Shown here piece by piece: positions 26,954-32,548 of a DNA stretch of 64,000 nucleotides; the first letter of the stretch is position 1; each line of letters begins with the position of its first letter. The stretch covers positions 192,001-256,000 of the forward strand of contig CAWDRG010000019.1 of assembly GCA_963804645.1 (NCBI GenBank), written 5' to 3'. Under the pieces are notes generated by a model. The model saw only the letters and a program-made list of their open reading frames with translations, was not told the origin of the DNA and did no database searches. Origin of the DNA: an uncultured Bacillota bacterium (GTDB taxonomy: Bacteria; Sysuimicrobiota; Sysuimicrobiia; Sysuimicrobiales; Segetimicrobiaceae). The position numbers and the translations under genes were made by a program.

Positions 26954-28323
26954 GAGCTAAAGTCGAGAGGTGTGGAAATTCAAGTGGCGTACCCTTTCCG
27001 AGATCCACCCACATCGGAACCTCCCTTGCCGGGGAGGGGAAAGGAGTACGCCAGTGTCAGCATATCAGCCACAACGGGGGTTGGACAAGGAGGAAGTCCG
27101 CTCGACTTTGGACGTGCTCGCGCGTGAAGGCGCGCAGCGCATGCTGATTGGCGCCTTGGAGCAAGAAGTCGAGGAGTTCCTCGGCCGGGCTCGCTATGAG
27201 CGTGGCGGGGCTCGACGGCGTGGGTACCGGAACGGCGCGGGGAAGCCGCGCAAGATCGCGGTCGGCTGCGGGACGCTCGAGGTCCGCCCACCGCGGGTAC
27301 GGGACACTGAGGAGGGGTTTCAGTCCCAGCTGCTGCCGCGGTATCAGCGGTCGAGCAATGCGGTCCGGGCGTTGCTGCCGGAGCTCTACCTGCAAGGCTT
27401 GGCCACTGGCGACTTTGAGCCGGCCCTCCGCACCTTGCTCGGGGAGGCCGCGCCCCTGAGTCAGACGTCGATCGTCCGCTTGAAGGCGAGCTGGCAGGCC
27501 GAATACGACACCTGGGCCCACCGCCGGCTGGCCGCCCGCTACGTCTATTGTTGGGCCGACGGCCTCTACTTAAAGGCGGGGCCCGCCGATGAGAAGACGG
27601 CCGTGCTGATCATCATCGGGGTGACGGAAGACGGCCACAAAGAGCTTCTCACGATGATCGAAGGCTACCGTGAATCCCGTGAGAGCTGGCGGGATGTATT
27701 GCGGGACCTGCGCCGGCGTGGCCTCAAAGACGTCCGGGTGTTCACCGGGGACGGCGGTCTCGGGCTCTGGGCCGCGGTTGGCGAAGTCTATCCAGAGGCG
27801 CGGCAGCAGCTGTGCTGGTGCCACAAGATGCTCAACGTGTTGGACAAGCTGCCGCAGCGCCTCCAGCCGGAGGCGCGGACCTTGATGCGCGACGTTTACA
27901 CCGCGCCCACGCGCGAGGAGGCCGACGCCCGGATCAAGAAATTCGCGCTGCGGTTCGAGCGGGACTATCCGCGCGCGGTGGCATCCCTCACCGATCACCA
28001 GGCCGAGTTGCTTACGTACTACGATTTCCCGCGGGAGCACTGGAAGAGTCTCCGGACGTCCAACCCGATCGAATCGGTCTTTGATCCGGTGCGCCTGCGA
28101 ACGCGCGCGACACGCCGGATGCGCAGAGCACAAACTGGACTGCATCTGGTCTTCCAATTAATCCGTCGGGCAGAGCAGCGATGGCGTCGAATCGACGCAC
28201 CGCACTTGGTCGCCAAGGTGCTTGAGGGTGTTCAGTTCGTCGATGGTGTGGAAGTGCTTGCGTCAGCGAAGAAAAGGAAGGGCGCCGCTTGATGCAATTT
28301 CCACACCTCTTGACTATTAGCTC
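26954..28323 (+). mobile_element. IS256-family insertion sequence B (1370 bp)
   Basis: TIRs GAGCTAAAGTCGAGAGGTGTGGAAATT / GAGCTAATAGTCAAGAGGTGTGGAAATT; 8-bp TSD GAACATCC at 26946-26953 and 28324-28331. Confidence 0.93.
27054..28292 (+). CDS. IS256-family transposase
   Basis: YRNG, WADG, GDG, CWCH and RTSNPIES motifs; AAGGAG RBS before GTG. Confidence 0.95.
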   Translation: MSAYQPQRGLDKEEVRSTLDVLAREGAQRMLIGALEQEVEEFLGRARYERGGARRRGYRNGAGKPRKIAVGCGTLEVRPPRVRDTEEGFQSQLLPRYQRSSNAVRALLPELYLQGLATGDFEPALRTLLGEAAPLSQTSIVRLKASWQAEYDTWAHRRLAARYVYCWADGLYLKAGPADEKTAVLIIIGVTEDGHKELLTMIEGYRESRESWRDVLRDLRRRGLKDVRVFTGDGGLGLWAAVGEVYPEARQQLCWCHKMLNVLDKLPQRLQPEARTLMRDVYTAPTREEADARIKKFALRFERDYPRAVASLTDHQAELLTYYDFPREHWKSLRTSNPIESVFDPVRLRTRATRRMRRAQTGLHLVFQLIRRAEQRWRRIDAPHLVAKVLEGVQFVDGVEVLASAKKRKGAA

Positions 28324-28414: not shown

Positions 28415-28663
28415 GTAGTACTGGGTAGTACTGGGTAGTACTGGGTAGTACTGGGTAGTACTGGGTAGTACTGGGTAGTACTGGGTAGTACTGGGTAGTA
28501 CTGGGTAGTACTGGGTAGTACTGGGTAGTACTGGGAGTACTGGGTAGTACTGGGTAGTACTGGGTAGTACTGGGTAGTACTGGGTAGTACTGGGTAGTAC
28601 TGGGTAGTACTGGGTAGTACTGGGTAGTACTGGGTAGTACTGGGTAGTACTGGGTAGTACTGG
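28415..28663. repeat. Tandem repeat (GTAGTACTGG) x25
   Basis: 12 perfect 10-mers, one 9-mer (GAGTACTGG), then 12 perfect 10-mers; no spacers. Confidence 0.97.
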
Positions 28664-29043
28664 GGGAGTGGATCATGCACGCGACATCGAAGTTTCGGAT
28701 GGCAGTCAGCGTTGTAATAGGGATTTGCCTCGTACTATGGGGCATTCCCCTCGCGGGTCAAGCGCAGGAAGTTCGGTCAATCACGCGCACTCAGGGGATA
28801 CTTGCCTCCGTAAATCTTGCAGGCATGACGGCAACGCTCCACACGTCCGCCGGACAGCGCGTGTTCACACTGACGTCGGTGACCGTGGTGCGTGTTGGTG
28901 AGGAGTTGGAGTTCCTAGATTCACTGCCGCCGTTTGTCGGTGCTGCGGCGATTGTGCTGTCGACTGACGTTGACGGTACCCAGGTTGCAGGGCGTGTGGA
29001 TATTTTGGTCTGAAGTTGCCCCGGTTTCGTGGAGGGTACAACG

Positions 29044-29868
29044 CTAGGCTACCACGGGCTGGTTAGCGCACCTCCTTTCGTACTCCGCCGGAGAGAGGTA
29101 CTCGAGGGCAGAGTGGCGCCGATGTGGGTTGTACCAACCTTCGATGAAGTCGAACAGTGCCCGCCGCGCATCACCGCGGCTGATAAACGTGTGCCGGATG
29201 AGTAGCTCGGTCTCCAAGGTCGCGAAAAACGCTTCCGCAAGCGCATTGTCATACGCGTCGCCGGCGCTGCCCATGGAGGGGACGACGCCCGCATCCTGAC
29301 ATCGCCGTCCGAAGGCAAGGCTCGTGTACTGCGTTCCGTGGTCCGAGTGGTGCACCACGCCCGCCGCGGGGCGGCGATTCCACAGCGCCATGTTCAACGC
29401 ATCGAGCACGAGCGTGGTGTCCAGCGCGTGACTCATGGCCCATCCCACCACGCGCCGACTGAACGCATCCAGCACCACGGCAACATACAACCAGCCCAGC
29501 CCCGTCCGCACGTACGTGATATCGGCGACCCAGAGCTGGTTCGGCGCGGCCGCAGCGAACTTCCGGCGGACCAGGTCGGGCGCCAGTGTGGCCTCCCGAT
29601 CGCGGACGGTCGTCTGTGGTCGCCGACGCCGATGGGCCCCTACAAGTGTGGCCGCGCGCATCAGACGAGCGACCCGTTTGCGCCCGCAGCGTACCCCGCG
29701 CGCCCGCAGCTCGGCATGGACGCGCGGCGCGCCGTACGTGTGACGACTGAACGTGTAGATCGCCTGAATCTGGTCCTGGAGGACACCGTCCGCCTGAACC
29801 CGGGCCGATGGCGGGCGATGGTGCCAGGCGTAGAACCCGCTGGGGGAGACACCCAGGACTCGACACAT
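29044..29868 (-). CDS. IS3 OrfB (DDE/rve domain); normally reached by -1 frameshift
   Basis: WVADITY, HHSDHGTQY, DNALAEAFF and YNPHRRHSAL motifs. Confidence 0.93.
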   Translation of the reverse strand: MCRVLGVSPSGFYAWHHRPPSARVQADGVLQDQIQAIYTFSRHTYGAPRVHAELRARGVRCGRKRVARLMRAATLVGAHRRRRPQTTVRDREATLAPDLVRRKFAAAAPNQLWVADITYVRTGLGWLYVAVVLDAFSRRVVGWAMSHALDTTLVLDALNMALWNRRPAAGVVHHSDHGTQYTSLAFGRRCQDAGVVPSMGSAGDAYDNALAEAFFATLETELLIRHTFISRGDARRALFDFIEGWYNPHRRHSALEYLSPAEYERRCANQPVVA

Positions 29869-29982
29869 AGTGGCGATAGGGGCCGTGGCCTTCTCTCGCT
29901 TTACGAATTCGAACGCTGCGACGGCGTCCGGGTCTCCTGCGCGAAGAAGGCGGCCGCTACCCTGTAATTGGTCGTCGCGTGT

Positions 29983-31203
29983 CTACGCTGGGGACTCCTC
30001 CAGTGACACCTTGTACCCGAGCGCTTCCAACCGTTTGACCGCTCGGCGAGCGATGGTGGCCCGAGGGCGCCGGTCGAAGTGGGTAGGGCCGAGGTCCTGG
30101 TAGATCGTGCCCGTTTTGAGCATGTGGTACATGCTGACCAGGATCGCATGCGCAACGGCCAGTGCCGCCCGCTTCTTCCCACGGCGTCCGGCCAGCCGAT
30201 GAAAGAGCGCGCCCAGATACGTGTTCTTCGTCCGGGCCGCCGCATGCGCGGCTTCGACGAGCGCGGTCCGGACATACGGGTTCCCATGCCGGGTCTGACC
30301 ACTCCGGCGCTTCCCGGCGCTTTCGTCGCTCCCGGGACAGACGCCGGCCCAGGACGCCAGGTGCGCTGCGTCGGGGAACCGGGTCATGTCCGTGCCGATC
30401 TCGGCCAGCACGTCTTCCGCAATCCGCCGGCCGATGCCGGGAATCATATCCACGACCTGCAGCGCCGGTTCGTCCGCCTGCATCCGCTCCGCAATCGCGA
30501 GCACGAGGCGCTCGATCATGGCCTCCAATGCCTCGAGGTGTTCCAGTTGCAGCGCGAGCAGCATCTGCTGGTGCGGGCCGACCACACCTTGGAGCGCCCC
30601 TTGGAGGGCCGCGCGCTTGCTCCGCAGCCGTCCGCGCGCCAATTCCGCGATCACCGCTGGATCCGTCTCCCCGTGAATCAGCGCCTGCAACATGGCCCGC
30701 CCTGACTTGTTGACAACGCTGCTGGTAACATCGCCCAGCTTGATGTTCGCACCCTCCAGTACCTTCTGGATGCGATTGACCTCGCGCGCGCGCTCCTCGA
30801 TCACCGCCCGACGATAGCGCACCAGTTCACGCAGTTCGCGCTGGGGCCGGGCGGGAATGAAGCTGCCGCGCAGTAGTCCATGCCGAAGCAGATCGGTGAT
30901 CCACTCGGCGTCCTTGACGTCTGTCTTCCGCCCCGGGACCGCCTTGATCGCCTGCGCATTGACCACCAGTAGCTGTAGGCCCGTGGCCTCGAGCAGGTTG
31001 TAGATGGGCTTCCAGTACACCCCGGTGCTCTCCATCGCCACGTGCGTACATCCCGTTGCCTGCACCCATTCGGCCAGCGCCACCAGCTCTGCCGTGATCG
31101 TGCCAAAGGTCCGGAGCTCCTTCCCGGTCGGTGTGATGGCACACGCCACCACGGACTTCTTGTGCACGTCCAACCCACAGCAGTGCGAGTACAAGACCTC
31201 CAT
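29983..31203 (-). CDS. IS110 DEDD recombinase/transposase
   Basis: GLDVHK, MESTG, KTDVKDA, IPGIG and ESAGK (catalytic Ser loop) motifs; GGAGG RBS. Confidence 0.96.
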
Positions 31204-31224
31204 CCGCCCCACCTCCCTGGGCGC

Positions 31225-31420
31225 CTCGGGGCGGTAACCGTGCGGGGAAGAGTCTACCCTGCGTGCTTCCCGAATGGGAGCAACATTTTGTGGTGCCAGA
31301 CGGTTACCGGGGTCAGACTTTTTTGCGGGCTCGCGGCACCAAGCGGCGTCGGCCTCAGCTCCACCGGGGCGCTCGGGTTCCCAGTTCCCCGACGGCCACT
31401 TTCATCCTTTCGCTGGTGCC
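31225..31420 (-). ncRNA. Putative IS110 bridge/seek RNA in the upstream non-coding end
   Basis: Non-coding end of about 240 nt; stems CGGTAACCGT/ACGGTTACCG and TGCTCCC/GGGAAGCA; matches to target (GCCGCTT, AAAAAAG) and donor (CAGGGTAG); boundaries approximate. Confidence 0.75.
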
Positions 31421-31425
31421 GCACA

Positions 31426-31701
31426 CTACGCGGCATGCCGGACTTTTTTCAGGATTTCTCGCTCTTCCCGTAAGACCCGATTCTCGCGGCGGAGGCGACG
31501 GAGCTCGTCGCGTTCCTCGGTGGTCAATCCGTCCGTGCGCCGTCCGGTATCGAGATCCGCTTGCCGGACCCAGTTCCGCAACGATTGATCAGCGATCCCG
31601 AGATCTTTGGCGATCTGCCCGATCGACTTCCCCGACTCTCGGACCAGCCGCACAGCTTCCTCCCGATACGCTCGCGGGTAGGCCGGGCGAGTCTTCCCCA
31701 T
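31426..31701 (-). CDS. IS3 OrfA (HTH), C-terminus altered by the IS110 insertion
   Basis: YREEAVRLV...IAKDLGI...LRNWV and ELRRLRRENRVLREEREILKK. Confidence 0.9.
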   Translation of the reverse strand: MGKTRPAYPRAYREEAVRLVRESGKSIGQIAKDLGIADQSLRNWVRQADLDTGRRTDGLTTEERDELRRLRRENRVLREEREILKKVRHAA

Positions 31702-32548
31702 CGTGGACCTCCTTCGTGGGGCTTCCGGCCCCAACGATAGACTGTCCACGAAACCGGGTCAACTTCAGGTCTTCCCTGCGGCTGGGACTGTGGGAGTGAA
31801 CGCAGGCGGGAACACCGGCCATGAGGGCGTCTCGGGTAGCGCCGGCGGGTCAGGCGGTGTCGGGCCCTGTTCGGAGTGCGGGAGCGCGGCGGGAACAGGT
31901 CCCGGTGGAGCCGGTGGCGGCGGCAACGGCGGCAGCCATGAGAGTGGCGGGCAGCGATGAGGGCGGGCGGTAACGAGCGGTGCGGGTCGCTCGGGGAACG
32001 ATACTATCGACAGTAAGGTTTTATCACTTACCGGAAGCGTTGGCTGGGGCCAAACCTTTTTGCTCAGGTGATCGCGGCCGGTTCGGGTGCGCTCATCTCC
32101 GTTGGGGACCCGGCGGGACAGATCCTCGTGCTCGACGTGACGCCTGCCGACGCGATGGGGACGGGAGTCGGGACGTTCACCCTGGCGAGCCAGTGGGGCC
32201 AGAAGCTGGCGCACGGTCTCTGCAACGCGATGCCGTCGTCGCACTGGAACGTCAACTACGCCAGACCGTAAGGGCGGTCACGGAAAGGAGGTGGCCGAGC
32301 CCGGCGCGCCCCTCGACCAGAGGAACAGGTTGGCTTGATACGCGGTGAGGGGCCCGTCGTGAAAACCACTTGGGGGCTGCCTTGTGGCAGTCCTGGTTCG
32401 CCCTTGTCGACGGCGGCGCCGCGGACAAAGGTGATGACCGAAATCAAGGGGGTGAACACGGTTCCAGAAGGTTCTGCGCACTGATGGCCGACATTCGGTG
32501 GAGCACGTCTCCTTGGATGAGGCCAATACTTGTCGGCGGAGGTCTAAG

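Follow-up and report, generated by a model that had tools for sequence, protein, structure and literature searches.

The window considered here, a stretch of 64,000 nucleotides from assembly GCA_963804645.1 of an uncultured Bacillota bacterium (contig CAWDRG010000019.1, positions 192,001 to 256,000), carries an insertion sequence (IS) of the IS110 family that is 1486 bp long, lies on the minus strand at 29957-31442, and splits an IS3-family element at its AAAAAAG run. Very probably, it is an intact element guided by a bridge RNA (seekRNA) and integrated in the recoding run between orfA and orfB of the IS3. Relatives from many soils occupy IS3 elements in the same way, so the lineage seems to be specialised as a parasite of IS3, which it would disable.

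The element, its boundaries and its empty site

Regarding its assignment, the element belongs to the IS110 family: the product of its transposase gene, the sole long open reading frame (ORF) of the insert, matches Pfam PF01548 (DEDD_Tnp_IS110, E = 4.7e-38) and PF02371 (Transposase_20, E = 7.9e-23), and scores 276 bits against NCBIfam NF033542 (IS110 family RNA-guided transposase), for a cut-off of 140. The ORF is intact, has GGAGG 9 nt upstream of its ATG, and aligns over its full length with the homologues. The layout is that of the IS110 group rather than the IS1111 group, with 239 nt of non-coding DNA upstream of the gene and a right end of 26 nt; the non-coding left end is conserved in at least 40 homologues.

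On the minus strand, the junctions read ...CCTGAAAAAAG/TCCGGCATGCC... at 31443/31442 and ...CAGGGTAG/CGGCCGCC... at 29957/29956, with AG (CT on the plus strand) found at both. The ends of the element, TCCGGC... and ...CAGGGT, are not inverted repeats, and the insertion occurred without target duplication beyond the shared core dinucleotide. An earlier note, made from the window sequence alone, had reconstituted the empty target from the two flanks, and this site was directly seen when public metagenome contigs were aligned to 28950-31850: a contig of 187 nt from run X12 passes straight from 29956 to 31443 and lacks the 1486 bases between them, with 2 bases ambiguous. It derives from a ~93% relative of the window IS3 (1 + 11 differing letters in 187), and its 2-nt ambiguity defines both the empty site and the CT/AG core. 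Another contig (run X5, 2602 nt) has a copy of the IS110 with ~97% identical DNA inside another IS3 variant.

As for the host, it is bounded by imperfect terminal inverted repeats at 29010-29048 and 31730-31768; a third contig, from run X2, joins 29006 to 31768 and thus comes from a relative entirely devoid of the IS3. The orfA frame now extends over 31426-31749, continuing into the left end of the IS110 up to a stop at 31426, while the severed orfB part scores 336 bits against NCBIfam NF033516 (IS3 family). When the window flanks are joined into a virtual empty site, orfA reads ...EREILKKAAAFFAQETRTPSQRSNS and then a stop, passing through ...ILKKAAAFFA..., and orfB is open across the A-run in the -1 frame relative to orfA. 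From this frame layout, and from what is generally known of the IS3 family, the AAAAAAG run is taken as the recoding site of the IS3, with frameshifting presumed to occur there.

Two minor features of the ends can be added. In family members, a TGAAAAT in the left end has its inverse, ATTTTCA, next to the right end; this 7-nt inverted pair is degenerate in the window copy (ATGAAAGT and CAATTACA). Moreover, a contig of run X1 has an 11-nt tandem duplication of the right tip of the element at junction 29957 (TACCCTGTAAT, plus strand), which may be an assembly artefact or a footprint.

Table 1. Coordinates in the window of the IS110-family element, its predicted RNA parts and its IS3 host
Feature	Position	Strand	Description
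IS110-family element	29957..31442	-	1486 bp, counted with the right AG core copy at 29958-29957
IS110 transposase gene	29983..31203	-	406 aa from the ATG at 31203; ORF open from a GTG at 31212
IS110 right end	29957..29982	-	26 nt including the core, ...CAATTACAGGGTAG
IS110 left end, non-coding	31204..31442	-	239 nt: conserved hairpin, ATGAAAGT motif, bridge-RNA region
Conserved left-end hairpin	31417..31437	-	CATGCCGC...GCGGCA; followed by the segment 31420-31406 resembling the donor-loop 5' strand
Target-binding loop (predicted)	31311..31354	-	Outer helix 31354-31351/31314-31311; inner helix 31341-31336/31330-31326
Target loop, 5' strand	31350-31342	-	GACGCCGCU; would pair with the transposase-sense strand at A-AG-CGGC
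Target loop, 3' strand	31325-31315	-	CAAAAAAGUCU; equals left flank, core and first 2 element bases
Donor-binding loop (predicted)	31232..31309	-	Outer helix 31309-31302/31239-31232; inner helix 31285-31276/31271-31262
Donor loop, 5' strand	31301-31286	-	Between the outer and inner helices
Donor loop, 3' strand	31261-31254	-	Starts CAGGGUAG; equals right end and core
IS3-family host element	29007..31767	-	~1.27 kb minus its passenger; carries the IS110 insert
IS3 orfA (HTH_Tnp_1)	31445..31749	-	Up to the A-run; Pfam PF01527, E = 6e-13
IS3 orfB part (HTH_21, rve, rve_3)	29044..29956	-	Severed from orfA by 1486 bp; from Pfam and frame analysis
AAAAAAG run (presumed recoding site) of the IS3	31443..31449	-	Last two bases AG (31444-31443) are the left core copy

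The predicted two-loop RNA of the left end

The structure of the left end was studied on a set of 80 loci from genomes, whose transposases are 45-69% identical and which share the conserved non-coding left end. From these, 40 non-redundant RNA regions were aligned, and the RNAalifold consensus had three helices; a fourth was added by hand from the homology between the two inner stems. In this alignment, the 25 pairs of the four helices are paired in 92.2% of cases, versus 30-45% when the partner is slid by 1-3 columns. Compensatory changes occur in 17 of the 25 pairs, including all 8 of the outer helix of the donor loop, and the observed measures were reached by none of 500 shuffles. This covariation supports a two-loop bridge-RNA architecture for the left end, of which the window copy retains every helix and guide. 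The single-sequence fold of 31204-31444 was not more stable than its shuffles (z = 0.58); the structure is derived from the alignment only.

All positions and strings given in the earlier note are present in the sequence, including the guide strings GCCGCTT (31347-31341), AAAAAAGTC (31324-31316) and CAGGGTAG (31261-31254), and the stem CGGTAACC/GGTTACCG that closes the second loop (31309-31302 and 31239-31232).

A further, outermost helix (GGCTGG/CCAGCC) of the Bacillota homologues did not align consistently to the window copy and was excluded from the pair count. In these homologues (L004, L006 and L009-L011), a TG-N-TATAAT motif lies directly upstream of GGCTGG, ~150 nt before the transposase start, and hints at a promoter inside the element that would drive the RNA. 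No counterpart is present in the window copy, where the only promoter-like site found is the IS3's own, at 31762-31734.

Guides, flanks and element ends

In the window, the 3' target guide (AAAAAAG followed by TC) matches at 9 of 9 positions, and the 5' target guide (GCCGCTT) has a contiguous 7-nt run, A-AG-CGGC, against the right flank; between them, the guides define a 14-mer, and the site agrees with its central 11 positions. The donor loop's 3' strand is identical to the right end and core at 8 of 8 positions. The same arrangement occurs in family members whose targets differ widely: in the first loop, the 3' strand reproduces the left flank, then the core (AG, sometimes AA) and the two bases that open the element, and in the second loop, it reproduces the final six bases of the element and the core.

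These correspondences were measured across the family, with the guides located by fuzzy anchors and the left end located crudely, independently of the guide, via ATGAAAAT and CATG landmarks. For the 3' guide, 35 loci were used, the other 44 of the 79 listed being left out for weak anchors or short flanks. At least 8 of 9 positions match the left flank in 20 of the 35 loci, and the mean match is 6.0, compared with 3.66 for shuffled pairs (shuffle maximum 4.49, n = 1000); the covariation of guide and target anticipated in the earlier note is thus observed. The 5' guide is the reverse complement of the core plus the right flank; it is less strict, and its register varies by 0-2 nt. Its mean run from the core is 3.44, versus 1.97 after shuffling (maximum 2.79, n = 1000), with runs of at least 6 in 10 of 34 loci for a shuffled mean of 0.8. 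The TC after AAAAAAG had been read as a handshake guide, and this reading holds in the family: in 24 of 36 loci, the dinucleotide that follows the core is the one with which the element begins, and 7 different dinucleotides match in this way.

As for the donor loop, its 5' strand resembles, in the same sense, a segment placed right after the conserved hairpin, ~22-36 nt inside the left end (mean longest common word 5.65 versus 4.96 shuffled, maximum 5.30, n = 200). In sense-strand comparisons, no complement of this strand was found in 37 elements, save for one mis-anchored case, and a column-by-column covariation scan for a second donor guide was dominated by phylogeny and register shifts. This clade may recognise its left end via a subterminal segment beyond the conserved hairpin, and not via the tip.

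The resemblance can be followed in individual sequences: in the window, 31286-31301 (..GGCACCACAAAA) resembles 31406-31420 (..GGCACCAGCGAAAGG) in the same sense, as also occurs in L004-L136, and the variable 4-5 nt after CACC in the two segments change together across lineages. Among the homologues with other targets, three from Chloroflexota (L012, L014 and L058) share a target, approximately ...TTTCG(T/C)(A/C)C(C/G)-AA-TGACG..., which is apparently repeated in those genomes.

Recurrence of the insertion in IS3 elements

The earlier note had proposed that the RNA is aimed at the A6G signal of IS3 elements, and that the flanks of homologous elements would reveal it. Metagenomes were scanned with a pattern consisting of the inner stem followed by N-AAAAAAG-NN-TGA, which returned 50 loci; two were cut before the junction, leaving 48. 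In 38 of them the junction lies at the same point of an IS3 orfA (...LKK/AAAFFA), as predicted, and all 38 insertions have the same orientation as the IS3. This tally consists of 31 left flanks with the Pfam domain HTH_Tnp_1 in the sense frame, six short ones ending in MENEFLKK and one with an A7 run.

The junction is exactly AAAAAAG in 39 of the 48 loci, and 37 of these were run through Pfam: 29 left flanks have HTH_Tnp_1 in the sense frame, six are too short and end ...MENEFLKK (counted as IS3), and two have winged-helix domains of IS630-type transposases; an IS630-type flank scored 94.5 bits against the NCBIfam IS630 model, under its cut-off of 100. The two exact junctions outside this set are the A7 run, in an IS3-like flank, and an unidentified one. 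The nine imperfect junctions comprise two IS3 orfA genes with a mutated run (by Pfam), one IS630-like HTH gene and six others. Downstream, the readable right flanks continue as ...AAAYFA, VAAWFA or AAAFFA, and 10 of the 14 run through Pfam have HTH_21 and/or rve in the -1 frame. By flank sequence, the 39 exact junctions form 22 clusters and thus represent many independent IS3 hosts.

A sub-lineage (L110, L114 and L129) has the A6G guide and lies in IS630-like transposase genes (...QEAFKK/); L129 occupies another site, an imperfect one, within an IS630-like HTH gene, and 32 nt of its flank are duplicated.

Two lineages and a retuned guide

The three closest relatives found for the window copy, L096 (88% transposase identity), L099 (83%) and the X5 contig, have identical or near-identical guides and lie in three other IS3 variants; the target guides of L096, L099 and the window are identical. 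The large metagenome group is only 46-48% identical to the window transposase, while many relatives with other targets are 55-66% identical to it. In a maximum-likelihood tree of 75 rows, disregarding L128, L102 and L130 (very long branches, probably the wrong ORF), the elements with the A6G guide form two clades separated by branches with SH-aLRT values of 98-100. The first consists of the window copy, L096 and L099 (support 100), with L007 as a weakly supported sister (82); the second has 15 rows and is sister to the Actinomycetota element L067. With two separate transposase clades, the same target has been reached at least twice.

A retuned guide is found on the Streptomyces plasmid NZ_CP109482.1, whose IS110 is 61% identical to the large group and lies in an IS3 at ...DFLGK/AAAFFAQEYR: the orfA remnant ends ...RMKTDFLGK and the annotated IS3 family gene begins AAAFFAQEYR. 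Here the run is the variant GGGAAAAG and the guide is GGGAAAAGTA; the guide changed along with the run at the same IS3 position. This locus (L137, 110321-116556) is itself a nest, in the order ISAs1 transposase gene, IS3 orfA remnant, IS110, IS3 fragment, IS701 in the IS3, and rest of the IS3.

Proposed mechanism

In the proposed mechanism, the 239-nt left end would encode an RNA containing two internal loops. The target loop would have a 3' strand, CAAAAAAG-UC, that corresponds to the left flank followed by the core and the two opening bases of the element, and a 5' strand (..CGCCGCU-U) that is the complement of core and right flank; the donor loop would carry the right end and core in its 3' strand, CAGGGUAG. 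With the site read opposite the transposase strand, the 3' guide and its handshake bases could pair, as the earlier note had proposed, with the post-exchange strand in which the left flank meets the left tip of the element. The RNA might be made by read-through from the promoter-like site of the IS3 and would bind the transposase, and recombination would proceed via a circular intermediate, as in IS621 and ISEc21.

The guides seem tuned to the one nucleotide-constrained stretch of the IS3, the slippery run followed by Lys-Lys-Ala-Ala codons, and on this account the lineage would land preferentially in many kinds of IS3, always in the sense orientation. As landing separates orfA from orfB, it would block synthesis of the OrfAB transposase.

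Alternative explanations

Several observations weigh against this account. Those on pairing concern the right flank, where the window 5' guide specifies ...GCGGCGU and the site has ...GCGGCCG; in the larger clade this guide often matches at 5-6 of 8 positions, and in 24 of the 34 family loci its run is shorter than 6. A search of the donor loop for a complement of the element's left tip was negative, in line with the earlier note, which had reported no convincing second donor guide. An Rfam search of 28900-32000 (E up to 10) gave no family match, only a chance-level hit (E = 3.1), and no RNA runs containing the element sequence were found. The phase of the A-run relative to orfA is AAA-AAA-G, unlike the textbook slippery phase, A-AAA-AAG. 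The element is present once in its own genome, which gives no evidence of recent activity there. Lastly, L096 (2138-2481) has an IS3 orfA on its left and an arabinofuranosidase-like gene on its right. Flanks are also mixed in L105, with one IS3 type on the left and another on the right; both cases may be assembly chimeras across the 1.5-kb repeat, or real rearrangements or recombination between copies.

If the guides are read as the relic of a past event, the window copy would be decayed or immobile and its function lost. Its single copy and the lack of matching RNA runs suit this possibility, as does the genome itself, in which no free AAAAAAGCGGC 11-mer site was found. However, the 406-aa ORF is intact and aligns over its full length with its homologues, the helices and guides are all intact, and the ~97% identical copy from run X5 lies in another IS3 variant; loss of function is unlikely. 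A chance nest in a sink rich in ISs, with the upstream region acting as a leader or promoter and the likeness to the flanks being a coincidence or an insertion relic, is extremely improbable. The surroundings are indeed IS-rich, with an IS256-type transposase gene at 26970-28292, and the single genomic copy and the z value of the single-sequence fold fit such a nest. Against this, the helices covary, the guides covary with the flanks across loci with unrelated targets, and the same junction is found in 38 other IS3 contexts; the 22 flank clusters of the exact junctions argue against one clonal locus.

The remaining alternative concerns the specialisation and not the mechanism: the RNA would specify a short A-rich word (approximately AAAAAAG + GCGGC), of which IS3 elements are merely the commonest carriers in G+C-rich genomes, with no evolved specialisation. 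Accordingly, 10 of the 48 junctions lie outside IS3, three of them IS630-like with the A6G run and seven elsewhere or unassigned, one of these being in a gene with a UTRA domain and another in an antisense rve gene; six of the ten sites are imperfect and A/G-rich. The word is also rare, with just 61 occurrences on both strands of the 5.3-Mb genome of the window (68.6% G+C), so that any A6G guide would be funnelled to few carriers. By contrast, the same guide occurs in two separate transposase clades, the guide of the Streptomyces relative has shifted to GGGAAAAG with the insertion point in the IS3 unchanged, the 5' guide varies where it faces wobble positions of the Ala codons after the run, and the orientation is constant in all 38 IS3 cases. 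A guide without specialisation is very unlikely. Of the claim that the element is a parasite of IS3, the preference stands, while the specificity is for a sequence and not for IS3 as such. An intact, RNA-guided IS110 integrated in the recoding run of its IS3 host is the reading that best accommodates the window copy.

Genomic surroundings

No second copy of the window IS3 and no further copy of the IS110 was found in their own genome, which has just two IS110 paralogues of ~70% nucleotide identity. Of the 61 genomic AAAAAAG words, one lies at the left junction and one in the guide, only 125 nt from each other, which exceeds chance. Another ten belong to a tract of ~800 bases, nearly all A or G, on contig C9 (~1098455-1099224), which lies ~1.2 kb from the IS110 paralogue L002. 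In the window, the IS256-type (Mutator) transposase gene that adjoins the nest matches PF00872 with E = 8e-70, and between it and the IS3 a 10-nt unit, GTAGTACTGG, is repeated 25 times at 28415-28664 with 99% identity.

Broader implications

A wider reading can be put forward tentatively, at slightly less than an even chance: on two or more occasions, bridge-RNA elements would have converged on the signal used for recoding by other transposons (IS3, and IS630 in one lineage), even following variant runs, and would be dedicated hyperparasites or silencers of IS3 that borrow its promoter and recognise their own left end subterminally. If so, the convergence would arise because a transposon cannot alter that stretch by synonymous drift, the sense-oriented insertion would let the IS110 use the IS3 promoter for its own guide RNA, and the subterminal recognition would be a donor geometry not described for IS621.

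The insertions would be a natural instance of one mobile element being directed by RNA to a functional nucleotide signal of another, and would explain the recurrent "split IS3 pseudogenes"; as the recoding run is nucleotide-constrained, it would remain available as a target across diverse IS3 elements. Since each insertion would abolish OrfAB synthesis, these IS110s may damp IS3 proliferation in soil Actinomycetota, Chloroflexota and others. In addition, the dozens of natural guide/target pairs inform on the tolerance of mismatches in the right flank and on guide retuning (AAAAAAG to GGGAAAAG). Finally, a distinct bridge-RNA clade, with reversed polarity, an upstream non-coding region and a donor loop in which no conventional second guide was found, may widen both the engineering toolbox and the mechanistic picture.

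Comparison with known systems

The mechanism appears to be of the known bridge/seekRNA kind, and the target specialisation appears to be undescribed: no description of an IS110 at the slippery run of an IS3 was found in full-text literature searches and in recent preprints, although the supplementary tables of Durrant et al. and of Siddiquee et al. may list such targets. The closest precedent for the target is ISEc21 (Siddiquee et al. 2024, PMC11187229). Like the window element, it is of the IS110 type, has an upstream non-coding region and is directed to its target by RNA; in nature it inserts into a conserved stretch of IS3-family transposase genes, at the DDE codons, and its transposase has 358 aa. 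An IS1111-group element used for comparison belongs to the same superfamily and also lands in a conserved sequence of another mobile element; it differs in that its non-coding region is downstream of the transposase and its target is a terminal repeat, not an in-gene recoding signal.

The likeness to IS621 (Durrant et al. 2024, PMC11208160), an element also treated by Hiraizumi et al. 2024 (PMC11208158), extends to the DEDD recombinase, the long non-coding left end and short right end, the two-loop RNA with one loop reading both target strands and the other the donor, the 2-nt core included in the pairings, the scarless insertion, and the core CT on the appropriate strand. The window element departs from IS621 in its transposase, which at 406 aa is of the IS110-proper size class, compared with ~320 aa for the IS621 class (PMC11187229), in having no identified donor guide for the left tip, and in its target, another IS instead of a REP-like repeat.

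The main difference lies in the order of the guides. In the window element, it is the 5' target strand that would pair with the right flank, on its sense strand, and the 3' strand that has the sense sequence of the left flank; with the transposase strand as reference, this is the reverse of the IS621 order described in PMC11208160. The reversal is found in the window and in the homologues, in place of the order given for IS621 and ISEc21 in PMC11208160 and PMC11187229, in which the 5' strand reads the bottom and the 3' strand the top strand. In PMC11187229, the top-strand match of ISEc21 is placed 3' of the bottom-strand match and the opposite is reported for IS1111-type seekRNAs; the window order is thus opposite to that of ISEc21 and equal to that of the IS1111 type. 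The earlier note had placed the CT core on the strand opposite the transposase, unlike IS621, which agrees with what PMC11208160 describes. In conclusion, judged from sequence, the rules of IS621 fit the window element only if its recombination site is read opposite the transposase strand, with CT as the core.

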